Shown here piece after piece: positions 7,558 to 61,544 of a DNA stretch of 64,000 bases (its first letter is position 1; every line of letters begins with the position of its first letter). The DNA is taken from assembly GCA_017686895.1 (NCBI GenBank), contig GCA_017686895.1_4521.1; one strand, 5' to 3'. The notes beneath the pieces are model-generated. The model saw nothing but the letters and a program-made list of their open reading frames with translations. It was not told the DNA's origin and did no database searches. The stretch is from a phage. The position numbers and the translations under genes were made by a program.

Positions 7558-8514
7558 ATGATGTTAGTTATTGGTTCTCGTGCACTTCACTATCACGGTC
7601 TTATTGATTCTAGCGCTATCAAAAATAGTGATTGGGACTTTATTGCGGACCAATGTTCTTGGAATGCATTCAAAAATCAAATGATGGGTGTATATGTTCA
7701 CCAAGATAACCCTGGTGTCCAAGTTTTCAAATGTTTCCATAATGGACGCGAAACTCATTTTGAAGCATACATCGTTCCGGCTATCACTAACGTTCGCGAA
7801 CTAGTCGGTGAACTCACTCCTGAAGATTTCACGTCTTCTTATGACCTTTTAAAATACGCCAAGAAAAATTTGACTAAAGACCGTTTGAACGGGTTTTACT
7901 GGGCAACTCCTGAGATATGTCTTGCAATTAAGATGTCTCATCGTTTCAAGAAAAATAATCCATTCTTTTTAAAGACTATGAACCATATTCAGTATCTTCG
8001 TGGTAAAGGTGTTACACTGGACGATGAACTTACTGAAATTATGCTGAAACGCCAGAAAGAAACCTTGAACTATGCTCACCCAGTTCTTGACACTTCTAAA
8101 AGCGCATTCTTTAAAGATGACATCTATACGTATGACCATGATACTATTCACGAAGCCATTGCACTAACAGACCGTCCAGCGTATACATTTTATATGAAAG
8201 ATGGTTCTGAAGTCATGACCTCACGCGAGAAGTTCGAATCATTACCAGAAATGGTCAAATTAGCCGGCGTATACGAAGAATCATGTGTACTAGCGTTAGA
8301 ACGTTCTCAGATTCCTAATAACTTTGAAATCCATCCACGTGATAGTTTTATGATGGCATTAGAAAAAGTCTGTACTTCAATCACGTCAGGCTGGTTCCGT
8401 GAATACGCTTGGGAAAACTACAGCAAAGTTGTAAGTATGTACCAAAGCTTAGGACATGACGATTATGTAAAACGTTTTAAACAAAATTTCCATATGGTAA
8501 AACCTTTCAAATAA
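7558..8514 (+). CDS. hypothetical protein
   Basis: 318-aa ORF, ATG-ATG start after GAGGAAAA RBS; N-terminal IGSRALHYHG...DWDF weakly resembles a nucleotidyltransferase motif. Confidence 0.55.
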   Translation: MMLVIGSRALHYHGLIDSSAIKNSDWDFIADQCSWNAFKNQMMGVYVHQDNPGVQVFKCFHNGRETHFEAYIVPAITNVRELVGELTPEDFTSSYDLLKYAKKNLTKDRLNGFYWATPEICLAIKMSHRFKKNNPFFLKTMNHIQYLRGKGVTLDDELTEIMLKRQKETLNYAHPVLDTSKSAFFKDDIYTYDHDTIHEAIALTDRPAYTFYMKDGSEVMTSREKFESLPEMVKLAGVYEESCVLALERSQIPNNFEIHPRDSFMMALEKVCTSITSGWFREYAWENYSKVVSMYQSLGHDDYVKRFKQNFHMVKPFK

Positions 8515-8526
8515 TTTCGCAAAACT

Positions 8527-8556
8527 GTTTACACAATTATAGGACTATGTTATAGT
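8527..8556 (+). promoter_or_regulatory. early promoter inside a palindrome (approximate coordinates)
   Basis: GTTTAC, 18 bp, TGTTATAGT; flanked by ATAGGACTA / TAGTCCTAT. Confidence 0.55.
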
Positions 8557-8584
8557 AGTCCTATTAAAACATGAGGAGAATATT

Positions 8585-8890
8585 ATGAAATTAGGCGAAA
8601 CCAACCGAATTGGTCTTTTAACTATATTTGTATCACTTTTTTACGTAGCTCTTTCTGTTGCAGTATTACAAAAGGCTTACGATATGGATGGTGTTCCTGG
8701 TTTTGTATTCTTATCACCATTTTTATTATTCGTCGGGGCTTTGTTATTATATGCCACGACTAGTTTTGACCATAACGTCTGGGTTAATTATAAATGTAAA
8801 TTGTCTGAAGAAGAACACGCAGAAGCTCGTAAAAAAGCTATTGAATCTACCAATCTAGAAAATTTCATTAAAGAATGTCGAGGAAAATAA
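8585..8890 (+). CDS. small membrane protein with ENFIKECRGK tail
   Basis: Two hydrophobic segments; C-terminal LENFIKECRGK. Confidence 0.5.
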   Translation: MKLGETNRIGLLTIFVSLFYVALSVAVLQKAYDMDGVPGFVFLSPFLLFVGALLLYATTSFDHNVWVNYKCKLSEEEHAEARKKAIESTNLENFIKECRGK

Positions 8891-8891
8891 T

Positions 8892-9578
8892 ATGAATAGT
8901 TCTAAAGTGTTTAATAGTCAAGCTCGTGCAGTAGGTGGTTTTGCTCATAACGTACAAAATGACCAAATCAAAAATGAACCAATGTTCTTTAACTGTGATT
9001 TGAGTTTTGCTTGGGATAACGGCGGTCCTATTACTCGTAGCTTTATTGCCAATCTCCCAATTGATTGGACTAATCAACATGTTGTATTTGATTCTCGGGT
9101 TCATATGCTGATGCCTGGTTGGTATCCTGCTATTCCTGGATATCACCATGACGATGTTCCTCGCCCTGATATTCCAGTCGGCCAACACTTTATTACTGCA
9201 GGACAACCTGACTATGATAACCCTCGTTACCATTCTGAACATATTCTTGGTCTTGTTAACGCTGACGTGTGTCCTACTCATTTTGCAACAGGAACTGCAG
9301 AGTTCAGTCAGATTCCTGATGGCGAACTTATCTATCGCCAATGGCACAAAGAAGTCCTCGAAAAAATTGAAAAAGGTGAACTAGAGAAATGGGAAGCTCC
9401 AGACCGTACTCTTCTTCAGTTTGATTGGCAAACATGGCACACTGGTTCTCGTGCAATTAGTAATGGATGGCGTTGGTTCGGACGTGTATCTCGTAATACA
9501 GACCGAGTTAAAAAGATTACCAATGAAATTCGTGTCAATGCCCAAGTTTATCTGGAATTCCCTATGGAAGGCTGGTAA
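8892..9578 (+). CDS. putative Fe(II)/2-oxoglutarate-dependent oxygenase-like protein
   Basis: Candidate HxD (GYHHDD), distal His (WHTG) and RxS (RVS) in the spacing typical of the 2OG oxygenase fold; motif-level only. Confidence 0.4.
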   Translation: MNSSKVFNSQARAVGGFAHNVQNDQIKNEPMFFNCDLSFAWDNGGPITRSFIANLPIDWTNQHVVFDSRVHMLMPGWYPAIPGYHHDDVPRPDIPVGQHFITAGQPDYDNPRYHSEHILGLVNADVCPTHFATGTAEFSQIPDGELIYRQWHKEVLEKIEKGELEKWEAPDRTLLQFDWQTWHTGSRAISNGWRWFGRVSRNTDRVKKITNEIRVNAQVYLEFPMEGW

Positions 9579-10069
9579 TGATTAACAAAATATATTGGTC
9601 TAATATTGACGACGGCAATGAAGGTATTTCATACTATTCAGTAGATTGGACAGGATGTCCATCCTACTTAGTGAAACGTATTTGTCAAGAATTTAAAATC
9701 GACCAGCCAGCAGGTATTATCGTGAACAGATACATTAATGGATATCAACCTATCGATGAAGTAATACGAACAACTCAAGCTGATCTTGAAAAGTTTTTCA
9801 ATAAGTGTCAATGGATAACAGGATGGATTATATTTGTACCGTCGGTATGGTTTTTTAGTACTAAAGTAAGTGCCTTTGCCATACCAGATATTATCGCTAT
9901 CTTATTAGCATCTACTATCGTAAGTATTATTGGTGGTATTATTGGTGGAGGTACTATAGGCATCATTATTAATCTTGTTAAAAGTAGTTTACAGGAACGT
10001 AAAGACAAGATAAAGGCCAAGAATAATGAAGTTGAACGTTTTATTACCGAATGCAGGAATTTGAGATGA
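9578..10069 (+). CDS. membrane protein with ERFITECRNLR tail
   Basis: TAATG overlap start; Gly/Ile-rich TM segments; conserved tail. Confidence 0.5.
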   Translation: MINKIYWSNIDDGNEGISYYSVDWTGCPSYLVKRICQEFKIDQPAGIIVNRYINGYQPIDEVIRTTQADLEKFFNKCQWITGWIIFVPSVWFFSTKVSAFAIPDIIAILLASTIVSIIGGIIGGGTIGIIINLVKSSLQERKDKIKAKNNEVERFITECRNLR

Positions 10070-28608: not shown

Positions 28609-29082
28609 ATGTTATTATCTGGCAAATTATACAAAGAAGAAAAACAAAAATTTTATGATGCACAGAACGGTAAGTGTCCTATTTGCCACCGTGAATTAGA
28701 CCCTGATGTTCAAGGTAACCATCTTGACCACAACCACGAGTTAAACGGGCCAAAAGCCGGTAGAGTTCGTGGATTACTCTGTAATCTGTGCAACGCAGCA
28801 GAAGGCCAAATGAAGCATAAGTTCAACCGTTCTGGTCTTAAAGGTCAAAACGTTGATTACCTCGAATGGCTTGAAGCTCTTCTTGCTTATTTGAAACAAG
28901 ATTATTCTGATAATAATATCCATCCTAATTTTGTTCCAGACAAAACTAAAGAGTTCTCAAGACTAGGTAAAGAGGAAATGATGGCTGAGATGCTTCAAAG
29001 AGGATTTGAATATACTGAATCTGATACTAAAACACAATTAATAGCTTCATTCAAAAAGCAGCTTAGAAAGAGTTTAAAATGA
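28609..29082 (+). CDS. 49: endonuclease VII (Holliday junction resolvase)
   Basis: GKCPICHRELDPDVQGNHLDHNHELNGPKAGRVRGLLCNLCN ... colinear with T4 gp49, 157 aa. Confidence 0.95.
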   Translation: MLLSGKLYKEEKQKFYDAQNGKCPICHRELDPDVQGNHLDHNHELNGPKAGRVRGLLCNLCNAAEGQMKHKFNRSGLKGQNVDYLEWLEALLAYLKQDYSDNNIHPNFVPDKTKEFSRLGKEEMMAEMLQRGFEYTESDTKTQLIASFKKQLRKSLK

Positions 29083-30896
29083 AAATTGAAAAAGAAATTG
29101 AAGGATTAATTTATAAAACTAATAAAGATCTTTTGAACGAGAATGCTAATAAAGATTCTCGTGTTTTTCCAACTCAACGGGACCTTATGGCTGGTATTGT
29201 GTCTAAGCACATTGCCAAAAATATGGTCCCGTCTTTTATTATGAATGCGCATGAAAGTGGAATTATCCACATGCATGATATTGATTATTCTCCTGCTCTT
29301 CCGTTTACTAATTGTTGTTTAGTCGATTTAAAGGGGATGCTTGAGAACGGATTTAAATTAGGCAATGCTCAAATTGAAACGCCTAAATCGATTGGTGTTG
29401 CTACTGCAATTATGGCACAAATTACTGCACAAGTTGCTTCACATCAGTATGGCGGAACTACATTTGCGAATGTCGATAAAGTTCTTTCTCCTTATGTTAA
29501 ACGTACATACGCTAAACATGTTGAAGATGCAGAAAAATGGCAAATCGCTGATGCGTTGAATTATGCTCAATCCAAAACAGAAAAAGATGTATACGATGCA
29601 TTCCAAGCTTATGAATATGAAGTAAATACTCTCTTTAGTTCAAACGGACAAACGCCTTTTGTAACAATTACATTTGGTACGGGAACCGATTGGACTGAAC
29701 GAATGATTCAGAAAGCAATTCTTAAAAATCGTATTAAAGGTCTCGGTCGTGACGGAATAACTCCTATTTTTCCTAAACTTGTTATGTTTGTTGAAGAAGG
29801 TGTTAATCTTTATAAAGATGATCCAAACTATGATATTAAACAACTTGCGTTAGAATGTGCAAGCAAAAGAATGTATCCTGACATTATTTCGGTTAAGAAT
29901 AATAAAGCTATTACTGGTTCTTCAGTTCCGGTTTCTCCAATGGGCTGCCGTAGTTTCTTGAGCGTATGGAAAGATTCGACTGGTAATGAAATTCTTGATG
30001 GACGTAATAATCTCGGTGTTGTAACACTGAATCTTCCTCGCATCGCATTAGATTCTTATATTGGAACACAGTTCAATGAACAGAAATTTGTTGAATTATT
30101 CAATGAACGAATGGATTTATGTTTTGAAGCTTTGATGTGTAGAATTAGTTCCTTAAAAGGAGTTAAAGCGACTGTTGCTCCTATTCTTTACCAAGAAGGT
30201 GCATTCGGGGTTCGTCTTAAACCTGATGACGATATAATTGAGTTATTTAAAAACGGTAGAAGTTCAGTGTCTTTAGGATACATCGGTATTCATGAATTGA
30301 ATATTCTTGTTGGTCGTGATATTGGACAAGAAATTTTAACTAAAATGAATGCTCATCTTAAACAGTGGACCGAAAGAACTGGATTTGCTTTTAGTTTATA
30401 TTCTACTCCTGCTGAAAACTTGTGTTATCGTTTCTGTAAACTTGATACAGAAAAATATGGAAGCGTAAAAGATGTTACCGATAAAGGCTGGTACACTAAT
30501 AGTTTCCACGTTTCAGTAGAAGAAAATATTACTCCGTTTGAAAAGATTTCTCGTGAAGCGCCATATCATTTCATTGCGACAGGTGGTCACATTTCTTATG
30601 TTGAACTTCCTGATATGAAAAATAACCTAAAAGGTCTTGAGGCCGTGTGGGATTATGCTGCACAACATTTAGATTATTTTGGTGTTAATATGCCAGTAGA
30701 TAAATGTTTTACATGCGGAAGTACTCATGAAATGACTCCTACTGAAAACGGATTTGTTTGTTCAGTTTGTGGAGAAACTGATCCTAAAAAGATGAACACT
30801 ATAAGAAGGACATGCGGTTATTTGGGAAATCCGAACGAACGCGGATTTAATCTCGGTAAAAATAAAGAAATCATGCATAGGGTTAAACACCAATGA
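29079..30896 (+). CDS. nrdD: anaerobic ribonucleoside-triphosphate reductase
   Basis: 605 aa; C-terminal zinc ribbon CFTCGSTHE..CSVCGE and glycyl-radical motif RTCGYLG; uninterrupted, no intron. Confidence 0.95.
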   Translation: MKIEKEIEGLIYKTNKDLLNENANKDSRVFPTQRDLMAGIVSKHIAKNMVPSFIMNAHESGIIHMHDIDYSPALPFTNCCLVDLKGMLENGFKLGNAQIETPKSIGVATAIMAQITAQVASHQYGGTTFANVDKVLSPYVKRTYAKHVEDAEKWQIADALNYAQSKTEKDVYDAFQAYEYEVNTLFSSNGQTPFVTITFGTGTDWTERMIQKAILKNRIKGLGRDGITPIFPKLVMFVEEGVNLYKDDPNYDIKQLALECASKRMYPDIISVKNNKAITGSSVPVSPMGCRSFLSVWKDSTGNEILDGRNNLGVVTLNLPRIALDSYIGTQFNEQKFVELFNERMDLCFEALMCRISSLKGVKATVAPILYQEGAFGVRLKPDDDIIELFKNGRSSVSLGYIGIHELNILVGRDIGQEILTKMNAHLKQWTERTGFAFSLYSTPAENLCYRFCKLDTEKYGSVKDVTDKGWYTNSFHVSVEENITPFEKISREAPYHFIATGGHISYVELPDMKNNLKGLEAVWDYAAQHLDYFGVNMPVDKCFTCGSTHEMTPTENGFVCSVCGETDPKKMNTIRRTCGYLGNPNERGFNLGKNKEIMHRVKHQ

Positions 30897-31363
30897 ATTA
30901 TGATAGATTTTATCCTTGCGATTTTGTTAATGGCCCTGGTTGCAGGGTCGTTCTTTTCGTTACAGGTTGTTTGCATAAATGCGAAGGGTGTTATAATAAA
31001 TCAACATGGAACGCTAGAAATGGTGCTCCATTCACTGGAGAGACACTAGAACAATTAATTGAATGTTTGAATAATGATTATATAGAAGGATTAACTATAA
31101 CCGGAGGAGACCCTCTCTATCCTGATAACCGAGATGTTATTCACTCTGTAGTTCAAACTATTAAAAATCTTTATCCCAATAAAAGCATTTGGTTGTGGAC
31201 AGGATATAAGTTTGAAGATATTAAACAGCTAGAAATGCTTAAATATGTTGATGTTATTATTGATGGGAAGTATGAGAAAAATCTTCCGACCAAAAAGTTG
31301 TGGCGAGGATCAGATAATCAGCGACTTTGGTCAAATACCGATGGGGTGTGGAAACATGATTAA
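30893..31363 (+). CDS. nrdG: anaerobic RNR activating enzyme (radical SAM)
   Basis: CLHKCEGC radical SAM cysteine motif; ATGA overlap with nrdD. Confidence 0.9.
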   Translation: MNYDRFYPCDFVNGPGCRVVLFVTGCLHKCEGCYNKSTWNARNGAPFTGETLEQLIECLNNDYIEGLTITGGDPLYPDNRDVIHSVVQTIKNLYPNKSIWLWTGYKFEDIKQLEMLKYVDVIIDGKYEKNLPTKKLWRGSDNQRLWSNTDGVWKHD

Positions 31364-40019: not shown

Positions 40020-40910
40020 ATGAATTTAATATATCTTATAACCTTTTATAATCGTGAGATTAAAAATGAATACCCGTGTTATTATATAGGTTCTAAAGTT
40101 TCGTGTCATTTTAATGGAAAGGATATTATTGAAGATTCTACCGGTAAAATATATACCGGTAGTGTTAATTCCTCGTATTCTCCTTTATATAACAGATTAA
40201 TAGACCAAGGCGAATATTCTGTAAAAATTTTAGGCGAAACCACATTAGACCCTAGAAGAATAGAAAGACTATTCCAACTCAATGTTAAAGCCGTTTCAAA
40301 TGAAAAATATTTTAATAAGGCTTATGCTAACGAGAAGTCTAGAATATCAGCTAAAGGATATGCACCGTATAAAAATTTAAAAACAGGCAAAATAGTAAAA
40401 CTTTCTAAAAACGAAATAAACGAAGATTACGTCGGTGTTAGAAAAAATTGCAAATTGTCGGAGAATCATTTAAACGCAATTAGAGAATTTCAAAAAACAT
40501 ATTGGACCAAAGAACGAAGAGAGAAAGTTTCTATTCGTTCTAAAAAAATGTTTAACGATAGAGATTTTGCTTTAAAATTTAAAGATATAATGAATTCTCC
40601 TAATGTTAAAGATAAAATAAAAATATCTAAAACATTGTATTGGTCTAAACCTGAAAATAGAGCAAAGGCCTCTATCGCAGCTTCGAAAAGAAATGCAACC
40701 AAAGAATTTAAGGATAAATTCAGAAAATCTAAAGCTAGAGGTACATGGATATTTCATGAACAAAAATTAAAGGAATTGTGGATTGCTTTAGGAAAACCAA
40801 GTTATATTACATTTAGAAAACATGCAATTCAGCATGGTTTTAATGATGAATCATACCAAGGTGCTATCCGGTCTTGGACAAATTATTATGCTAATAGGAA
40901 ACCTAAATGA
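40020..40910 (+). mobile_element. free-standing GIY-YIG homing endonuclease gene (seg-like)
   Basis: N-terminus MNLIYLITFYNREIKNEYPCYYIGS gives the GIY-(10 aa)-YIG spacing; Lys-rich C-terminal DNA-binding region; markedly AT-rich; inserted between rpbA and 45. Confidence 0.6.
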
Positions 40911-46400: not shown

Positions 46401-47036
46401 ATGAAAACTACACCAATCACTATCGCTATTGACGCAATCGTAAAACAAGCTTCTTCTTTGGCTACTATGGCCAAAGTAATTAGTCAAAACCCTGCTCGTT
46501 ATAATGCTATTCTAGAAACTCTTCGACGCCCTGGACTGAGTAATTATGAAAGCCGAGTAATTATTACAGGTGTTGGTAAGAACGCTAATATCGCAACTAA
46601 AGCTTCCGAGACTTTTGCTTCACTAGGTATTCCTAGCATGTATTTGAACACCGGGCATTATTCTCATGGCGACGCAGGGTTTATTGCACCTAATGATGTA
46701 TTAGTTCACATCAGTCGTTCTGGTAAGACTGAAGAAATGATAGGTGTTGCTAAACATCTTCGTATGATTCGTCCTCAGGTTAAACAGATTCTGTTACATT
46801 GTAACCCTGACATTCCGCAAGAATACGAAGCTCTTTTTGATTATACGTTCTGTACAGGCATCGCGGTAGAGGTTGATGAGAATTCTCTGGCTCCGACCAT
46901 GTCCACTACATTGTTGTTAGCGCTTATCGATACGTTTGCTATCAACCTTTCGTCTGAACGTGGATTTACCTCTAATGACTTCCTTAAGTTCCACCCTGGT
47001 GGTGCACTAGGTGCCATGTTACGAGGCGAACAATGA
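46401..47036 (+). CDS. SIS-domain phosphosugar isomerase (KdsD/GutQ-like arabinose-5-phosphate isomerase without CBS domains)
   Basis: RVIITGVGKNANIATK, HISRSGKTEE and C-terminal FLKFHPGGALGAMLRG match the KdsD-type SIS domain as I recall it; 211 aa. Confidence 0.8.
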   Translation: MKTTPITIAIDAIVKQASSLATMAKVISQNPARYNAILETLRRPGLSNYESRVIITGVGKNANIATKASETFASLGIPSMYLNTGHYSHGDAGFIAPNDVLVHISRSGKTEEMIGVAKHLRMIRPQVKQILLHCNPDIPQEYEALFDYTFCTGIAVEVDENSLAPTMSTTLLLALIDTFAINLSSERGFTSNDFLKFHPGGALGAMLRGEQ

Positions 47037-47176
47037 AAGCAATAACAATAGGACTTTTACTATTGATGCTTGTCATGACTATCTACTGGAGCTTAACGGC
47101 TCCAGTAATGATTCCGACTCTTATAATCGGATGGATTATGATTGGACTACAAACAAAGTATGAATGCTTTAACTAG
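47033..47176 (+). CDS. small two-helix membrane protein (47 aa)
   Basis: MKAITIGLLLLMLVMTIYWSLTAPVMIPTLIIGWIMIGLQTKYECFN; ATGA overlap with SIS gene; hand-identified. Confidence 0.35.
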   Translation: MKAITIGLLLLMLVMTIYWSLTAPVMIPTLIIGWIMIGLQTKYECFN

Positions 47177-47189
47177 AATAGTGTACAAT
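47165..47189 (+). promoter_or_regulatory. candidate MotA-type middle promoter
   Basis: TGCTTTA box, 12 bp, TACAAT, about 28 bp upstream of ATG 47218. Confidence 0.45.
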
Positions 47190-47217
47190 ACACCTACTTA
47201 CCAATGAGGACCACAAC

Positions 47218-48903
47218 ATGAAAAAAGCTGTTATTCTTGGTGCTGGACTGGCAACTCGTTTGTATCCAATAACGCACCATATTCCTAAGGTGCTTGTTAA
47301 CTATAAACAAGACACTATTCTGAGCAATTTGTATACAATTTATTCTGACCTTGGTGCAGATGAAATTATTGTAGTAGTTCATTCAAAATTTGTTGAAACT
47401 GTTCGAGCTTATTGTGAGCAAGAAGGGTTCAATGTGACTATTCGTACAGTTGATGAAGCGTATGGTTCTGCTTATGCTCTTGCTAAATTATACAAAGATT
47501 TAGATGGCCATAACGTAATTGTTAACTGGTGTGATATTATTCCTGATTTTGGTTCATGGTCTTGGAATGTTAACGCAATCTATGTTAAGGGTGATGAATG
47601 TCGATATAATTTCGATGGTGAAAATATCACTAACGTAGGTTCAACAGGCGGTAATGTTGTAGGAATTTATCAGTTCAAAGACTGGGAATTCTATATGGGT
47701 TCTACTGATGAGGAAATTCATGAATACTGCAAAGGGCGTGATTTCGTAGAATTCCTTTACGGCAGTGCATTCAATAAATCAGAGCTTATGAATCTAATTG
47801 ATTTAGGTGATATGCCTAAACTTGAAAAAGCTCATGAAGTTCGTGAACTTAATCGTAGTTTTAATGCAGTTGAAATTGGTGAAGAAACTGTAACTAAATT
47901 CGCATTAACCGAACAGGGACGAGCTCTTCAGAAAGATGAGATTTCGTGGTATCTTAAAGTGAAATCAGATTCAGTTCCTCAGTTAGTTTCTGTTAATGAA
48001 AATAACTTTGAAATGGAACGCATTAAAGGTAAGCCAGCATTTGAATATATTAAATCCAAATCAAGTCTTGCTCGTCCACAAATTGTTGATGCAATTTTAG
48101 ATGCACTGAAATTCAGCACAGACACTTATTTTGTAAGTCCTGAAACTGTTCGTCGTGATTTCACTAAAGAATTCTATACGAAAGTTATTGATCGTTGTGA
48201 AAGCATTCAACCATTGATTGATTCATTTGGTAAAATCACACATGTGAACTACACTAAGATTGGACGTCTGAAGCCAATGCTGAAACAAGCTTTAGAACAC
48301 CTTATTCGTTATCATAACCGTTCTCAGGGACAGTACTCTGTTATTCATGGTGACCCGAACTTCAGTAATACTATGATTACTGATAACGGCGAAGTCAAGT
48401 TTATCGACCCTCGTGGATATTTTGGCGAAACCAAGATTTACGGGCCAAAATTGTACGATGAAGCTAAAGTGCTTTATGCTGTTTCAGGTTATGATGAATT
48501 CAATGCTAATCCGACCTGGGGACAGTTTACTATTGATGAAACAACTTGTAATGTGACTATTAACATCAATCCATTAATTTACAAATATGGAAAGATGAGT
48601 TCGTTTAACGAGTATCATCATTTGGCGGTGGCAATTATCTGGATTGCATTAGGTGGTTATTTCAAGAATAATCCACTTAAAGCGGTAGCCGCATATTATA
48701 AAGGTATGGAACTTCTGACTAAGCAATTACGCAACATGGGCCGTGTACTTCAAGACGGCTCTATTAGTTATGACGTAGCAGAACCTGTAACGGCTACTCT
48801 GATTACAAAAAATCCTGGTAAATGGGTACTAACTGATAAAGAAACTGGTGTTTCCTATCGTCCAATCGGTGGCGATATCACTCATCAATGGGAACGAATC
48901 TAA
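47218..48903 (+). CDS. bifunctional sugar-phosphate nucleotidyltransferase / APH-ChoK-fold kinase
   Basis: N-terminal AVILGAGLATRLYPITHHIPKVLV (sugar nucleotidyltransferase G-x-G-x-R-L-x-P-x-T motif); C-terminal VIHGDPNFSNTMI and FIDPRGYFG (aminoglycoside/choline kinase Brenner and DxE-like motifs). Confidence 0.75.
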   Translation: MKKAVILGAGLATRLYPITHHIPKVLVNYKQDTILSNLYTIYSDLGADEIIVVVHSKFVETVRAYCEQEGFNVTIRTVDEAYGSAYALAKLYKDLDGHNVIVNWCDIIPDFGSWSWNVNAIYVKGDECRYNFDGENITNVGSTGGNVVGIYQFKDWEFYMGSTDEEIHEYCKGRDFVEFLYGSAFNKSELMNLIDLGDMPKLEKAHEVRELNRSFNAVEIGEETVTKFALTEQGRALQKDEISWYLKVKSDSVPQLVSVNENNFEMERIKGKPAFEYIKSKSSLARPQIVDAILDALKFSTDTYFVSPETVRRDFTKEFYTKVIDRCESIQPLIDSFGKITHVNYTKIGRLKPMLKQALEHLIRYHNRSQGQYSVIHGDPNFSNTMITDNGEVKFIDPRGYFGETKIYGPKLYDEAKVLYAVSGYDEFNANPTWGQFTIDETTCNVTININPLIYKYGKMSSFNEYHHLAVAIIWIALGGYFKNNPLKAVAAYYKGMELLTKQLRNMGRVLQDGSISYDVAEPVTATLITKNPGKWVLTDKETGVSYRPIGGDITHQWERI

Positions 48904-49289
48904 TGCACCGTGTAGAAAACATGCTTAATCTTTGTTTTGATGTCGATGATTGTATAACAGAGTGGAATAACAATCGTGATTACGTGAACTTCAAACCAGA
49001 CGTCGAAATGGTGTCTGCCATTAATGCCCTGTATGATGCAGGGCATACCATAACGCTTTACACTGCTCGTGGTATGAAGTCAGTAGGTCCTGGTCGTATA
49101 GCAATTGACATTCTCCCAAGTCTGATTCAGAACTTGGCAAACATTGGCTTGAAGTACCATAATTTGCTAACACATAAACCAGTATATGATTGGATTATCG
49201 ACGACAAAGCTATGCGTCCTGACGAATTCAAAGCTCTTATGAATAAAGGCGAATTCGAAACATTTAAATCATATAAACCGAATCTATAA
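48903..49289 (+). CDS. HAD-superfamily phosphatase
   Basis: Motif I FDVDDCIT (DxDxT), motif III-like K-x-DWIIDDK; TAATG overlap with upstream gene. Confidence 0.65.
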   Translation: MHRVENMLNLCFDVDDCITEWNNNRDYVNFKPDVEMVSAINALYDAGHTITLYTARGMKSVGPGRIAIDILPSLIQNLANIGLKYHNLLTHKPVYDWIIDDKAMRPDEFKALMNKGEFETFKSYKPNL

Positions 49290-49335
49290 TAATTTAAGTA
49301 AGACCTGCAAAAACCATCGCATCAATTAACGCGAG

Positions 49336-50505
49336 ATGCAAAAAATGAATACTTTTAAAATCGGAACGAATTTTGATTTAGCTCTTCTTGATAAAATCGT
49401 AGAGCTCAATAAAACCTATCCTAATAGCTTGATAAACGAAGTATATGGCTCTACAAGAGAAATGGCTTTTGTAGCAGCCAGACCTGATTTTAGGCTTCCT
49501 GACGTTGACAAAAAGATGTTAGAAGATTACGTTAAACGTTGTAACGAATTAGGTATTTGCTTTAACTATACACTCAACACGATAAATCCTGGTTCAAAAA
49601 GAGAACTAGTTGAGTGGAAGAAGAAAGCTATTCAGGATTATGTTCAGTATCTTTGGTCAATAGGCGTATGGCGTATTACTATCGCTAACCCTGTTGTTAT
49701 GGAAATTGTTCGTGAAGTCAATAAAGATATTGAGATTGAAGTTTCAACAATTCTACATGTCGATGCGGTAACTCAAATCAAATACTTACATGACCAATAT
49801 AACATCAAAAAGGTCTGTTGCGGAATTCATAAGAACCGTTCAGTTTCTTTCCTGAAGCGTGCAGCAGAGTTTTGCAATAAGAACAATATAATATTTGAAG
49901 TTCTTGTAAATGAGTTCTGTTCTAATGCTGGTAAAGGGTATACAACACATTGTAGTTATCGTGACTCTTGCTATATTTTCCATAGTACTGATGTTACAGC
50001 TGATGATGCTAAATCCTTAAATGGATATCCAATGCAACACTGCATTAAAGCTCGTGATACAGACCCATTTAACTGGTTGAGAACTCGTTTTGTTCGTCCT
50101 CAAGATTTGAAACTTTATAATGATATTGGTATCACTCAATTCAAAGTTTCAGGACGTACAGGTAGCACAGACTACATTTTGAAAGTTCTTGAAGCATACG
50201 CTTCTGAAAAGTTTGAAGGTAATTTGTTAGAACTGTGGAAGCCTTTAGAGACTATTTTCACTCTTGAAAATGAGACTGAGTTTTCACATACAGTAAATAT
50301 TGAAACCTCTTTGTTAGATGGCTTTTTAGAAAAAAGGTGGTTCAGACATCCAGATTTTGATTGTGCTAATGAAATCTGTGGGTCAACGTGTACATATTGT
50401 GAAAGGTATTATAAACGTCAATTATCTAAAAACGGGTTAGCAGAAAACTCCATATCTATTATTGATATAACTAACTCTGATGACGCTTTGAGGTACCCGG
50501 AATGA
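49336..50505 (+). CDS. Cys-rich protein with peptidase-U32-like features (tentative)
   Basis: EVLVNEFCSNAGKGYTTHCSYRDSC resembles the U32 signature region; many cysteines including C-terminal CGSTCTYC (Cx3Cx2C); family not confirmed. Confidence 0.3.
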   Translation: MQKMNTFKIGTNFDLALLDKIVELNKTYPNSLINEVYGSTREMAFVAARPDFRLPDVDKKMLEDYVKRCNELGICFNYTLNTINPGSKRELVEWKKKAIQDYVQYLWSIGVWRITIANPVVMEIVREVNKDIEIEVSTILHVDAVTQIKYLHDQYNIKKVCCGIHKNRSVSFLKRAAEFCNKNNIIFEVLVNEFCSNAGKGYTTHCSYRDSCYIFHSTDVTADDAKSLNGYPMQHCIKARDTDPFNWLRTRFVRPQDLKLYNDIGITQFKVSGRTGSTDYILKVLEAYASEKFEGNLLELWKPLETIFTLENETEFSHTVNIETSLLDGFLEKRWFRHPDFDCANEICGSTCTYCERYYKRQLSKNGLAENSISIIDITNSDDALRYPE

Positions 50506-50741
50506 TTTCTAGAAAAAGTTTTAATTATAAACTTAACGAAGAGATTTTGACTATGAAACTGAACACTAACGAACAAATTCTTAAAAAGGCCCTTATGGGC
50601 CTGTTTGAAACCAAAGCGGCTAAAGTGATTAAAGAACCTGTTCAATTGGAATACTACACTGATGCATTCCTTCATAGTGTTCTTGGAAGTATAGATTCTG
50701 AAGCTTTACGTTATATCAACATTGTCAAGAAATTCAAATAA
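50502..50741 (+). CDS. hypothetical protein
   Basis: 79-aa ORF, ATGA overlap. Confidence 0.4.
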   Translation: MISRKSFNYKLNEEILTMKLNTNEQILKKALMGLFETKAAKVIKEPVQLEYYTDAFLHSVLGSIDSEALRYINIVKKFK

Positions 50742-50764
50742 GCTTTATGAATTGAGTATATAAT
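50742..50764 (+). promoter_or_regulatory. candidate middle promoter (approximate coordinates)
   Basis: GCTTTA box, 11 bp, TATAAT, about 20 bp upstream of ATG 50784. Confidence 0.4.
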
Positions 50765-50783
50765 AAATTGTATTGAGGTAAAT

Positions 50784-51500
50784 ATGGGAAAACATAACAC
50801 AATGAAATATATCAAAGCCGCAGATTTTCAAACCGCATTTAAAGCAGTCAATCGTGAAATTTTAGAAAACCCCGAATTCGTAACTGATTCTCGTATTGGA
50901 CGTTGTAATGAAATTGGGTCTATGACAGTAGTTGTTGACACTCCATCATCATTCAAAATGACCGACCCACGTATTAACCGCATCTCTTATGAATATGCCG
51001 AAGACTTCTGGAAGTTTATGATTTCTGGTGGTACCAACGCAGAAGAAGCGTTTAAGGCATATCCTAATGTCGCTAAATTTATTTCTAAACCAAAATCAGA
51101 TGTTTTGCCGGCGAACTTCAACACTTTCTATGGTCCTCGCATTGCGGCCCAATTACCAACTCTTCTAAAAGAACTTAAAGAAAAACCTAACTCTCGAAGA
51201 GTTGTGTTCCAAATTCTAGAAAGTTCTGATCAGGCTTTGCTTGATTCGGACGAAACACTTGAATATCCATGTACTGACTCAGTAACTTATTATATTCGTG
51301 ATGGTAAGCTTTATACCCACTGTCATATGCGTTCTCAGAACTGTGCTGTTGTTATGCAGTTGGATTTTTATCTCCAAGGAAAATTACTTCATTATATCGC
51401 TAACGAATGCGGTGTAGAAGTTGGTGATTATACTCATACCATGGTAAGTGCCCATGTGTTTGAACGTGATTTTGATTATGTTAAAGGATTCCTTGACTAA
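50784..51500 (+). CDS. 42: thymidylate-synthase-fold pyrimidine hydroxymethylase (dCMP hydroxymethylase-like, divergent)
   Basis: PNSRRVVFQI, catalytic-Cys region YPCTDSVTYYIRDGKLYTHCHMRSQN and VSAHVFERDF align to the PDSRRGIMIY / MCTNTVQYLIRD..NMRSND / GSLHVYSRHF blocks of T4 gp42 as I recall them. Confidence 0.65.
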   Translation: MGKHNTMKYIKAADFQTAFKAVNREILENPEFVTDSRIGRCNEIGSMTVVVDTPSSFKMTDPRINRISYEYAEDFWKFMISGGTNAEEAFKAYPNVAKFISKPKSDVLPANFNTFYGPRIAAQLPTLLKELKEKPNSRRVVFQILESSDQALLDSDETLEYPCTDSVTYYIRDGKLYTHCHMRSQNCAVVMQLDFYLQGKLLHYIANECGVEVGDYTHTMVSAHVFERDFDYVKGFLD

Positions 51501-52399
51501 TGGCTATTTTCCGCGTACCAATCTTGAGTATGCGGTCTTATGAAACTGGACAGTATGCTATCCTTAAGGATGGCAACTTCCAACTTCATTTGCACCGTGC
51601 TAATCCAGGTGATGTGATTACATATCCACGTAATGCATCTGATATTAAAGAATGCGAACGTCTTTTCCCAGAATTTAAGTTTGTTCCATTATGGTATAAA
51701 GATAACGCGTATAACACTCGTAAATATTTCTGGTCTGAAAATGAATTTGTGGTTGATTCATTAATTGCTTATTATGATTGTGATTTTCTAATCACAGATA
51801 TCACCGGATATGACGGCGCTTTTGATGTGGAATTCAATTTCAATATCACTGCAGACCCTAATAAACCACGTTTTTATATTGACGAATTCTTAAAAACTGA
51901 TATGTTGTCGGTTAATCGTTCACTTCAAACTACTGTGTTGAATGAACGTCAAAAAGAAGTGCTGGTTAACGCAGGTGCAGATGGTAATAAGATTATCGTA
52001 ACGCAGAAAGTTATACGTCCTTCCATCATGCAGCGTCTTGTAGGTGATTTGGCTCCTATTCATCTAGATGGTATTTTTCATCCATTTCGAATTAGTGACC
52101 CGTGCTATCGTTTTGAACAAGTGGTTGAATGTGCAATTCAATTAGGCCAACCGCTTTATATAACCGATCCAAATAATAGCTTCGACAGAAATAAGTATCC
52201 TGAAGAAGCATTGATTCGAATTTTTAAACCAACTAAAACTGAGTACTATCAAATTCTTAAAGGACGTCCGAAGATTCAATATTTCGAAAATCCTGAAGAA
52301 GTATTCCATCCAGGTCTTGGTGAGTTCATCTACTTTAATGCTTTAATTTCTTCGCCGTATAATATACCTAAATATGAAGATGTCGTAATCGAGGAATAA
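51500..52399 (+). CDS. hypothetical protein at the beta-gt position
   Basis: 299-aa ORF with no recognised motif; TAATG overlap with hydroxymethylase; occupies the slot of T4 beta-glucosyltransferase. Confidence 0.3.
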   Translation: MAIFRVPILSMRSYETGQYAILKDGNFQLHLHRANPGDVITYPRNASDIKECERLFPEFKFVPLWYKDNAYNTRKYFWSENEFVVDSLIAYYDCDFLITDITGYDGAFDVEFNFNITADPNKPRFYIDEFLKTDMLSVNRSLQTTVLNERQKEVLVNAGADGNKIIVTQKVIRPSIMQRLVGDLAPIHLDGIFHPFRISDPCYRFEQVVECAIQLGQPLYITDPNNSFDRNKYPEEALIRIFKPTKTEYYQILKGRPKIQYFENPEEVFHPGLGEFIYFNALISSPYNIPKYEDVVIEE

Positions 52400-52400
52400 A

Positions 52401-52949
52401 ATGGCTAAAATTATTTTAGTAGATGGCCCGGATAATGCTGGTAAAACAACTTTCATTAATGACATAATGGAAATTAGTGAAAGATATGTAAAGATTGATT
52501 TCCCTAAACGAACAGTTGATGGACGTTTCGATGTTAAGTCTCGAAATGAAGTTGGCTGTTTCGAAACTATGTTGAATTATTTAGACCCTACTAAGATTTA
52601 TCTATTAGACCGTGGATATATTAGTAACTGGGTTTATGGACGTATTCGACAAGATGCGGACTCGGTTCTTGACGTTTATGAACAGGATTATGTTCGTCTT
52701 TGCCAAAACCATGATGTGTTCACAATTATTTTAACACGTAACGAAATGACTGAAAGTTTTGAAGACGACCTTATTACTTTGTCTTCATTCGGTTTTAATA
52801 CAGTAATTTCACATTTTGAAGAGTTTGCAATTCATAACGAAATCCAAACGTATCAATTACTTAATCATGATGGTGCTAACAAAGTTATAGGATTTAATGC
52901 AAGCGAACGTAATAATTTGATTACAGAAATCATCAAATGGGCTCGTTAA
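52401..52949 (+). CDS. thymidylate-kinase-like P-loop nucleotide kinase
   Basis: Walker A ILVDGPDNAGKTT and DRGYISNWVYG (Tmk DR-Y-like motif). Confidence 0.6.
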   Translation: MAKIILVDGPDNAGKTTFINDIMEISERYVKIDFPKRTVDGRFDVKSRNEVGCFETMLNYLDPTKIYLLDRGYISNWVYGRIRQDADSVLDVYEQDYVRLCQNHDVFTIILTRNEMTESFEDDLITLSSFGFNTVISHFEEFAIHNEIQTYQLLNHDGANKVIGFNASERNNLITEIIKWAR

Positions 52950-57304: not shown

Positions 57305-57673
57305 ATGAAAAAATTAATCGCTTTAGCAATGGTATTTGGATTAACCGGATGTGGTGCCCATGGCTTTATCCCTAATAACGTCGGCCAATTGATTTACAAT
57401 CCGAATGTTAAACAGTACGACCAACCTAAAGTTGAAGTGGAAGACCCGGTTACTGTAGGTAATCGAATGATTCAAGCTGATGCCCATGCTCAACGTTATC
57501 GTGACTCTGATACCGTAGCATTGTCAAAAGAACAACGCGTTAAAGAACATTGTCTACAGGCTACTGAAATCGCATTCATTCGCTATGTTGAAACAACTGG
57601 TAAAGAGCCTACCCAGAAACAAATCGCGAATAACTACGTCCAGTGTATTGAACGTTTAAACAAATTTAATTAA
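57305..57673 (+). CDS. lipoprotein
   Basis: Signal peptide with lipobox LTGC (MKKLIALAMVFGLTGCGA). Confidence 0.55.
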   Translation: MKKLIALAMVFGLTGCGAHGFIPNNVGQLIYNPNVKQYDQPKVEVEDPVTVGNRMIQADAHAQRYRDSDTVALSKEQRVKEHCLQATEIAFIRYVETTGKEPTQKQIANNYVQCIERLNKFN

Positions 57674-57676
57674 TTG

Positions 57677-57706
57677 GTTTACACCAAAGTTAAAATAAGA
57701 TACTAT
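57677..57706 (+). promoter_or_regulatory. early promoter (approximate coordinates)
   Basis: GTTTAC, 18 bp, TACTAT. Confidence 0.5.
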
Positions 57707-57734
57707 AAACATAACAAATCAAGAGGAAATTAAC

Positions 57735-57983
57735 ATGGAATTATTCGTAGCTAGTTCAGTAGCAGTTTTAATCGCAGGTATTGGTTCAATCATCATTTAC
57801 ATGTTGCCTTGGGTAATCGCACTTATTCGTGGCACAAAAAGCACAACAGCAATCTTCTTTGTATCTTTACTCTTTAACTGGACGATGGTTGGTTGGATTG
57901 GAACTTTAATTTGGTCTATCGTTGCCGAAAAGAAATCTGCTCAGCAGCCTCAACAAGTAATTATTATTCGCGAAAAAGAATAA
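57735..57983 (+). CDS. superinfection immunity (Imm)-family membrane protein
   Basis: YMLPWVIALIRG ... FNWTMVGWIGTLIWSIV resembles the Imm family pattern as I recall it; two TM helices. Confidence 0.5.
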   Translation: MELFVASSVAVLIAGIGSIIIYMLPWVIALIRGTKSTTAIFFVSLLFNWTMVGWIGTLIWSIVAEKKSAQQPQQVIIIREKE

Positions 57984-61022: not shown

Positions 61023-61544
61023 ATGGCGCACTTTAATGAATGTTCACAACTTATTTCTGGTGTTGATAAAGCAGAAGAAGTTTATTTTAATGCTCTGATT
61101 CACGAAGATAAAGACCCACTTCAGGTAATGCTTGATATGCAGAAATCTTTACAGGTTCGTCTGGCAAATGACAAGCCTGAACATAACAAACATCCTGATG
61201 AATTGGCTACTGCTGGTGATGTTGTTGATTGGCTGCGTAATCAGAAAGATTATATTGATGATGAATTCCGTGAACTGTTGACTTCACTTGGTGGTATGAG
61301 CAATGGTGAAAAAGCCGCCAGCAGTGTATGGAAGCCTTGGAAAGCACAACATGCTGAATATCGAAATCGTCGTATCGATGAACTGTCTCCTGAAGACCAG
61401 CTTGAAATTAAATTTGAGATGATTGATATTCTTCATTTCGTTCTGAATATGTTCCAAGGTCTGGGTCTTTCTGCTGAAGAAATCTTTAAACTTTACTACT
61501 TGAAAAACCAACACAACTTTGAACGTCAGGATAATGGTTACTAA
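61023..61544 (+). CDS. 56: dCTP pyrophosphatase gp56 (MazG-like)
   Basis: MAHFNECSQLISGVDKAEE ... ETAGDVVDWLRNQKDYIDDEFRELLTSLG resembles T4 gp56 throughout. Confidence 0.9.
   Translation: MAHFNECSQLISGVDKAEEVYFNALIHEDKDPLQVMLDMQKSLQVRLANDKPEHNKHPDELATAGDVVDWLRNQKDYIDDEFRELLTSLGGMSNGEKAASSVWKPWKAQHAEYRNRRIDELSPEDQLEIKFEMIDILHFVLNMFQGLGLSAEEIFKLYYLKNQHNFERQDNGY

Follow-up and report, generated by a model that had tools for sequence, protein, structure and literature searches.

A thymidylate synthase-fold gene in the arabinose island of an RB69-like phage, commonly annotated as dCMP hydroxymethylase, is predicted to encode a flavin-dependent 5-hydroxy-dCMP synthase

The subject of this analysis is a plus-strand open reading frame (ORF) of 238 amino acids (aa) at 50784..51500 in a 64,000-nucleotide stretch of phage DNA (contig GCA_017686895.1_4521.1, hereafter the window), which derives from an RB69-like (Mosigvirus) phage of the T4 type. 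Judged by its orthology to characterised proteins, the ORF most probably (a probability of roughly 93%) encodes a 5-hydroxy-dCMP synthase (dCMP, deoxycytidine monophosphate), a member of the thymidylate synthase (ThyA) superfamily with a switched cofactor. An explanation of this gene appeared in print in 2025-2026, and the finding as such is therefore not new; the present analysis adds a correction of the annotation and an independent check of the D169N signature, which it confirms on 242 sequences (121 per family). The 7.3-kb surroundings of the ORF share 98-99% nucleotide identity with more than 150 Mosigvirus (RB69-like) coliphages, and in most of these 150+ near-identical database records the product is named dCMP hydroxymethylase or thymidylate synthase. 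The first-pass annotation, which was made from the letters of the window, had also labelled it a hydroxymethylase, and this label has to be given up, since the near-identical RB69 gp48 adds a hydroxyl and not a hydroxymethyl group to dCMP.

Probable identity with a flavin-dependent dCMP 5-hydroxylase

RB69 gp48 (ORF048c) has the same length as the window protein and is identical to it at 235/238 positions (98.7%), while the chains of PDB entries 9IQC and 9IR2 agree with it at 232/238 positions (97.5%), 9IQU being a shorter construct. Entry 9IQC, released on 2025-07-16, bears the title "Monooxygenase dependent on riboflavin with dCMP and FAD" (FAD, flavin adenine dinucleotide). The same structure (9iqc_A) ranked first in the structure comparison with a score of 32.2, followed by MilA, a cytidine monophosphate (CMP) hydroxymethylase (5jnh_A, 24.1), by three bacterial thymidylate synthases at ranks 3-5 (3ix6_B, 3v8h_A and 6auj_A, 19.5-20.3) and, at rank 6, by gp42, the dCMP hydroxymethylase of phage T4 (6l18_A, 17.7). 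The window protein has the ThyA fold, and it does not cluster with gp42 either by sequence or by structure. MilA, of mildiomycin biosynthesis (PDB 5JNH/5B6D), is unlike the window protein in being folate-dependent, in acting on a ribonucleotide, in forming a hydroxymethyl product and in being longer by about 100 residues. The Pfam model Thymidylat_synt covers only residues 122-235, the C-terminal half of the protein (E 1.9e-15), and is alone in scoring above its curated cut-off, the scores of the NCBIfam ThyA models being far under theirs.

The chemistry of this group of proteins was reported by Lee et al. (NAR 2026, PMC13326640), who described mono- and poly-arabinosylated cytosine in the DNA of RB69 and of Acinetobacter phage DLP3, with the sugar ether-linked to the 5-hydroxyl. 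Production of RB69 gp48 or DLP3 gp80 in Escherichia coli led to 5-hydroxy-deoxycytidine (5hodC) in DNA, 18O2 was the source of the oxygen in the RB69 gp48 product, a flavin resembling flavin mononucleotide co-purified with the protein, and flavin and O2 were used rather than methylene-tetrahydrofolate (methylene-THF) (PMC13326640). The D169N substitution was proposed as diagnostic, nine further homologues with it likewise made 5hodC, and cytidine was found to be wholly replaced in RB69 DNA (PMC13326640). According to the account given by Lee et al., a crystal structure of the HY126 homologue with flavin and its in vitro reconstitution are due to He et al. (Nat Chem Biol 2026; cited in PMC13326640). 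An independent paper also places the arabinose of Mosigvirus DNA directly at cytosine C5 (PMC13390438). The window has in common with RB69 gp48, DLP3 gp80 and the HY126 enzyme (to which 9IQC, 9IR2 and 9IQU would belong) all four signature residues, the sugar island and the gene order.

Certain points weigh against this assignment. The activity of the window protein would follow from its orthology to characterised proteins that are 97.5-98.7% identical, and three conservative-looking substitutions set it apart from RB69 gp48 (N85D, V107A and T126A in RB69), the signature positions being untouched. That 9IQC is the HY126 enzyme of He et al. is something we infer from the PDB title together with the remarks of Lee et al. 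Finally, an older paper (Thomas et al. 2018, PMC6024577) gave arabinosyl-hydroxymethyl-cytosine for RB69, an assignment that was later called erroneous (PMC13390438).

Signature residues of the hydroxylase family

In E. coli ThyA numbering, the signature comprises a retained C146, N177D, L143D/E and the diagnostic D169N (PMC13326640). Residues were mapped by profile alignments, for which the E. coli ThyA sequence matched the PDB at 264/264 positions. The catalytic Cys163 of the window protein corresponds to Cys148 of T4 gp42 and Cys146 of E. coli ThyA, Glu160 to Asp145 and Leu143, Asn186 (in HMRSQN) to Asp171 and Asp169, and Asp194 to Asp179 and Asn177; Arg183/Ser184 correspond to Arg168/Ser169 and Arg166/Ser167, and His224 to His216 and His207, with Arg138/Arg139 completing the key residues. 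The short blocks that the first-pass annotation had quoted do exist, YPCTDSV containing the catalytic Cys163 and RSQN spanning R183-N186.

Two samples were compared, one of 121 relatives that are 53-99% identical to the 238-aa protein and one of 121 T4-type relatives that are 58-96% identical to T4 gp42. Glu160, Cys163, Asn186 and Asp194 each occur in 121/121 members of the former, and Glu60, Asp145, Cys148, Asp171 and Asp179 each in 121/121 members of the latter. With Asn in every member of one family and Asp in every member of the other, the families show a fixed difference at the E. coli 169 position, the invariant Asp171 of the T4 type being replaced by Asn186 in the window protein. Two features of ThyA, Asn177 (specificity for deoxyuridine monophosphate, dUMP) and Leu143, are not kept, their places being taken by Asp194 and Glu160.

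The two families could be aligned over their full length by hhalign (215 columns, Prob 98.9%, E 2.6e-17). In this alignment, which is of moderate confidence in that region, an invariant Phe75 stands opposite T4 Glu60 and E. coli Glu58, and its vicinity holds no invariant Glu in the window family. This glutamate is needed for folate-dependent chemistry, and the hydroxylase family appears to have lost it, which is put forward here as a lead. An invariant block, KPKSxxLPxNFNTFYGPRI at residues 102-120, has no counterpart in gp42 and may form a cofactor loop, model confidence being low in this segment.

Divergence from T4 gp42 and origin of the lineage

Every ORF of the window was compared with T4 bases 1-90000 by tblastn, and conservation was ranked over the 77 non-nested plus-strand ORFs whose T4 counterpart spans 70% or more of their length. 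These syntenic ORFs have a median identity to T4 of 67%. The ORF at 50784..51500 is second lowest of the 77 and lowest among those with an assigned enzymatic function, the only one below it being a NrdC.5-like protein without known function. By BLASTP, the window protein and T4 gp42 are identical at 54/218 positions (24.8%; E 3e-13). It had been claimed in the first-pass annotation that the enzyme is far more divergent from gp42 than its core neighbours, with an identity of about 70% or more as the figure that would refute this; at about 25%, the claim is borne out. The five neighbours that it had named as close to T4 are indeed much closer, namely UvsX (67.7%), gp41 (85.2%), gp43 (61.6%), gp55 (93.8%) and lysozyme e (82.6%), and the same can be read from gp40 (83%), gp45 (77.6%), gp44 (77.2%), gp62 (73.8%), RegA (78.9%), gp46 (82.3%), gp47 (75.8%), gp61 (74%) and gp56 (71.7%), all in T4 nomenclature.

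In the interval between gene 43 and uvsX, the T4 genes imm.1-imm-42-beta-gt-segA are replaced by eight genes (46401-52949). Relatives of the hydroxylase with at least 68% identity were found in Mosigvirus, Dhakavirus, Marfavirus, Karamvirus-like Enterobacter phages and Yersinia, Serratia and Acinetobacter phages, and relatives with 33-38% identity in Tenacibaculum and Rhizobium phages, which lie outside Straboviridae. The gene order of sugar-activating enzyme, phosphatase, ThyA-like protein and glycosyltransferase recurs in Dhakavirus IME08 and Acinetobacter phage DLP1 and partly in Tenacibaculum phage PTm5. These observations favour a hydroxylase lineage that is separate from T4 gp42 and moves with the sugar island, and that is therefore unlike gp42 while the surrounding replication genes are T4-like. 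One of the two explanations offered in the first-pass annotation was that a distant homologue had replaced the enzyme along with the sugar island, and the recurring island order supports it.

An origin in place, by which an ancestral gp42 in Straboviridae would have been neofunctionalised into the hydroxylase and later exported to other phages, is considered less likely. The hydroxylase does occupy the position of gene 42, the alignment between the families runs over their full length, and in both families the L143 position is acidic and the N177 position is Asp. However, MilA and bacterial ThyA are closer to the hydroxylase in structure than T4 gp42 is, relatives of 33-38% identity reside in the unrelated Tenacibaculum and Rhizobium phages, and imm and imm.1, the flanks of gene 42 in T4, have moved elsewhere, so that everything from gene 43 to uvsX has been rebuilt.

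Homologues of imm.1 and imm (32% and 64% identical to T4, respectively) are located at 57305-57983 on the plus strand, near dmd/61.4 and sp and beyond gene 41. The T4 pair is situated between genes 43 and 42, and RB69 is arranged as the window is. A remark in the RB69 record prompted a search beside gene 43 for a nucleotide relic of the T4 42-imm intergenic region, which returned chance matches of 12-20 nt only.

Readings with a different cofactor or substrate

It is highly improbable that the ORF encodes an ordinary, fast-evolving orthologue of T4 gp42, that is, a dCMP hydroxymethylase that depends on methylene-THF, with later arabinosylation of its product to arabinosyl-hydroxymethyl-cytosine (ara-hmC). 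The window protein and gp42 (PDB 1B5E/6L18) are of similar size, both have the ThyA fold and the catalytic Cys, and in both the Asp179 position is held by the dCMP-selecting Asp and the E. coli L143 position is acidic; their genes also occupy the same syntenic place, with gene 43 and uvsX on either side and a DNA glycosyltransferase gene immediately downstream. The names in most database records and the ara-hmC given for RB69 by Thomas et al. 2018 (PMC6024577) point in the same direction, yet the reading is contradicted by the published data on 5-hydroxylation. The use of dUMP in place of dCMP, whether by a thymidylate synthase or by a dUMP hydroxymethylase/hydroxylase, retains hardly any probability, for although many records carry the annotation "thymidylate synthase" and the best NCBIfam and Pfam names say the same (below curated cut-offs except for Pfam), the position of E. 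coli Asn177 is held by Asp194 in 121/121 relatives as in the dCMP-specific T4 gp42, 9IQC was crystallised with dCMP, and the RB69 enzyme yields 5hodC with cytidine fully replaced in DNA (PMC13326640).

The second explanation of the first-pass annotation, that substrate or product specificity differs from that of gp42, can now be divided. It holds for the product, since RB69 gp48 makes 5-hydroxy-dCMP by way of O2 and flavin, and fails for the substrate: the residue aligned with T4 Asp179, which had been singled out for inspection, is the invariant Asp194, and dCMP is therefore still the substrate. The comparison of dCMP with dUMP in an assay with methylene-THF, as had been proposed, would give no activity and would mislead.

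Proposed mechanism, pathway and significance

For the 5-hydroxy-dCMP synthase assignment, the following course of reaction can be proposed. Asp194 would select cytosine, as Asp179 does in T4 gp42, and Cys163 would add to C6 of dCMP and render C5 nucleophilic. Cysteine attack on C6 is a feature of all ThyA-fold enzymes. The activated C5 would then be hydroxylated by a flavin-derived oxygen species, the oxygen atom coming from O2 via a loosely bound flavin and no methylene being taken from methylene-THF, and an elimination would free 5-hydroxy-dCMP. The conversion of dCMP, O2 and flavin to 5-hydroxy-dCMP was demonstrated with near-identical proteins, while the addition, the elimination and the order of the steps are modelled on the chemistry of the ThyA family.

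Downstream, 5-hydroxy-dCMP would be phosphorylated by the phage deoxynucleoside monophosphate kinase (gp159 in RB69, whose gene lies outside the window), and the polymerase would insert the product in place of dCMP. The 5-hydroxyl would be arabinosylated in DNA by the transferase of the next gene (51500..52399) with uridine diphosphate (UDP)-arabinofuranose as donor, the latter presumably being provided by the isomerase (46401-47036), the kinase/nucleotidylyltransferase (47218-48903) and the haloacid dehalogenase (HAD)-type phosphatase (48888-49289). The gp56 dCTPase (61023..61544, plus strand; 71.7% identical to T4 gp56 and 96.5% to RB69 gp56) would supply dCMP and exclude dCTP (deoxycytidine triphosphate) from the phage DNA.

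The gene would thereby decide the composition of the DNA, the linkage being that of 5-O-arabinosyl-cytosine, with an ether at C5, and not that of arabinosyl-hydroxymethyl-cytosine. The restriction, CRISPR and type IV systems that the phage evades or sets off depend on the chemistry of the linkage, as do the behaviour of the DNA in sequencing and the proper description of therapeutic Mosigvirus phages. As most of the 150+ records are mis-annotated, trust in either the annotation or the analogy to T4 leads to a wrong predicted pathway and a wrong assay design. The re-use of a folate-enzyme fold for flavin monooxygenase chemistry is striking enzymology, although its discovery has already been published.

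Organization of the arabinose island

A Shine-Dalgarno sequence read from the DNA, GAGG at 50775..50778 on the plus strand, lies 5 nt before the ATG of the hydroxylase gene at 50784. The TAA that ends the hydroxylase gene and the ATG of the following glycosyltransferase gene overlap (TAATG, 51498-51502), and therefore the two genes are probably translationally coupled. The order of genes around the ORF is that of RB69, and the island at 46401-52949, where DNA glycosyltransferase and nucleoside diphosphate-sugar genes are linked, matches RB69 gp45-gp55 gene for gene at 96.5-100% identity, the exception being ORF049c (88.6%).

All island genes are on the plus strand. The island opens with a KdsD/GutQ-like arabinose-5-phosphate isomerase (46401..47036; TIGR00393 8.8e-32, KdsD 3.8e-30; 96.7% to RB69 gp55), followed by a predicted bifunctional sugar-1-phosphate nucleotidylyltransferase and kinase (47218..48903; RB69 gp52:53, AfhE-like), the putative maker of UDP-arabinofuranose (PMC13326640), in which an N-terminal NTP_transferase match and a C-terminal kinase-like match were obtained (99.4-99.5% to RB69 ORF053c/052c). 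Next are an AfhF-like sugar phosphatase of the HAD type (48888..49289; TIGR01689 capsule biosynthesis phosphatase, 4e-13; 99% to RB69 gp51; PMC13326640) and a Peptidase_U32-family Fe-S-type protein proposed to be a prephenate-dependent, O2-independent hydroxylase (49336..50505; PF01136 7.4e-11; RB69 gp50). The latter is followed by a 79-aa ORF of the RB69 ORF049c family (50502..50741), whose start overlaps the U32 stop and which has no Pfam match. Beyond the hydroxylase gene come a putative DNA arabinosyltransferase 1 (51500..52399; RB69 gp46:47; 99-100% to ORF047c and ORF046c), the function of which was predicted in Table 1 of PMC13326640, and a thymidylate-kinase-like nucleotide kinase with a weak dTMP (deoxythymidine monophosphate) kinase P-loop match (52401..52949; 99.5% to RB69 gp45; PMC13326640, Table 1). 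The roles given to the island enzymes are predictions from family matches, from their identity to RB69 gp45-gp55 and from the proposals in PMC13326640.

The genes at 51500-52399 (299 aa) and 47218-48903 (561 aa) are intact in the window, and each is split in the RB69 reference record (ORF046c/047c and ORF052c/053c). A sequencing error in RB69 was reported by Lee et al. (PMC13326640), which the intact genes of the window support. The 79-aa ORF is the least conserved gene of the island (88.6% to RB69 against 96.5-100% for the others).

A possible oxygen-independent route to 5-hydroxycytosine

The U32 gene at 49336-50505, two genes upstream of the hydroxylase gene, encodes a protein of 389 aa that scores 42 bits with PF01136 against a cut-off of 22. 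To our knowledge, the established activities of the U32 family are all O2-independent, prephenate-dependent hydroxylations. They comprise the formation of 5-hydroxycytidine in 23S rRNA by RlhA (ho5C2501; PMC5727448), of 5-hydroxyuridine in tRNA by TrhP (PMC6599085) and anaerobic ubiquinone synthesis by UbiU/UbiV (PMC6747719, PMC10990095). When the phage protein was aligned by profile with these E. coli paralogues, RlhA was the best match (Prob 96.7%, 201 columns, E 3.4e-10), followed by TrhP (Prob 89.7%, E 1.9e-6) and UbiU (Prob 57%, E 1.1e-4), and UbiV gave no significant match (E 0.067). A search of the PDB with the U32 protein returned no sequence match, and the NCBIfam UbiU match was marginal.

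Across 120 relatives of the phage U32 protein (27-50% identical), Cys195, Cys206 and Cys236 are 99-100% conserved and Cys212 only 61%, and a C-terminal motif, C343x4C348x3C352x2C355, is 93-95% conserved. Cys206, Cys212 and Cys236 align with the first three Cys of the four-Cys motif of RlhA (CX6CX15CX3C), the spacing differing from CX6CX15CX3/4C. The phage protein has the Peptidase_U32 domain and three aligned Cys in common with RlhA, which makes the same modified base, 5-hydroxycytosine, and it carries the C-terminal Cys cluster in addition. It differs in being a single domain of 389 aa without DUF3656, in leaving the fourth Cys of RlhA unmatched and in a distinct conserved Cys195 upstream, and its substrate would be a deoxynucleotide or DNA.

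Genomic neighbourhoods add to this picture. In Klebsiella phage PWKp16, the small ORF between the U32 and hydroxylase genes encodes a genuine chorismate mutase (39.5 bits with PF01817, for which the cut-off is 27), and a gene of this type was found in 54 phage records from at least a dozen host genera, where, in the records listed, it is at or next to the genes named "peptidase" (U32) and "thymidylate synthase" (5-hydroxy-dCMP synthase). Chorismate mutase makes prephenate. An unrelated 80-kb metagenomic contig (SRR13394437_29825; L011, U32 region 8001-9891) carries a U32 homologue of 54% identity in the order glycosyltransferase, arabinose-5-phosphate isomerase, AfhE and U32 homologues, 3-deoxy-D-arabino-heptulosonate 7-phosphate (DAHP) synthase and an epimerase-like gene, the synthase scoring 237 bits as DAHP synthase against 63 bits as 3-deoxy-D-manno-octulosonate 8-phosphate (KDO8P) synthase; no ThyA-like gene was found within 8 kb of this U32 homologue. 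The U32 gene is present in 222 phage records at 80-100% identity, the hosts being all Enterobacterales or Shewanella, and it is absent from the hydroxylase clusters of phages of Acinetobacter, a strictly aerobic host. The anaerobic ribonucleotide reductase is encoded in the window as well, by nrdD and nrdG.

The phage U32 protein is likely a prephenate-dependent hydroxylase. The chorismate mutase beside U32 genes and RlhA as the best paralogue, together with the DAHP synthase neighbour, the lack of U32 in the Acinetobacter phages and the presence of nrdD and nrdG, further suggest an O2-independent, RlhA-like route to 5-hydroxycytosine, second to that of the O2- and flavin-dependent ThyA-fold enzyme; we advance this tentatively, at somewhat less than even odds. 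Speaking against it, E. coli Dhakavirus phages are without the U32 gene, no chorismate mutase was found anywhere in the window, and the U32 protein (RB69 gp50) appears in the list of Lee et al. under the name "sugar or heterocycle reductase" and receives no discussion there (PMC13326640). In a literature search that did not extend to He et al. 2026 and Mahler et al. 2025, nothing was found that links U32, chorismate mutase or prephenate to this phage DNA modification, and as far as seen the lead is new. If true, gut phages could go on hypermodifying their DNA in anoxic conditions, the pathway would have an anaerobic branch, and the family of prephenate-dependent hydroxylases would gain its first DNA-related role.

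Two related notions were rejected. The 79-aa ORF (50502-50741) fills the slot between the U32 and ThyA-like genes that is held by chorismate mutase in 54 related phages, but it is not a diverged chorismate mutase, since it does not resemble the PWKp16 enzyme and matches no Pfam model up to E 10; nor are the two equivalents, as they stand side by side in Yersinia phage TG1 and Serratia phage 92A1. A strict rule that U32 occurs only with a facultatively anaerobic host was also discarded, since E. coli Dhakavirus IME08 has no U32 gene and the correlation is one-sided.

Further U32 loci were observed in other sequences. A related locus is L015:5620-7022. Two large phage-like metagenomic contigs, of 466 kb (Ga0672870_0000001; L008:7447-9086) and 60 kb (L009:7504-9083), each have a U32 homologue (55-56% identity) that immediately follows a dCMP-deaminase-like gene and belongs to a replication module with DnaE polymerase, uracil-DNA glycosylase, thymidylate kinase and single-stranded DNA-binding protein genes; no ThyA-fold gene was found within 8 kb of either homologue.

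Other features of the window

An ORF of 296 aa at 40020-40910 (plus strand), between rpbA and gene 45, lies in the kilobase of lowest GC content of the window (30% against about 37%). Nothing in T4 bases 1-90000 corresponds to it, Pfam gives no match, and it may be a foreign insertion.

The nrdD gene (29079-30896) has no intron in the window phage. Its region at 29617-30913, downstream of the exact insertion site of the T4 intron, shows 94.6% DNA identity to T4 exon 2 (99.3% at the protein level over 425 aa) and is the longest high-identity tract of the window, the upstream part being at 88% and the nrdG side at 83.6%. This tract may be a footprint of recombination or of intron homing.

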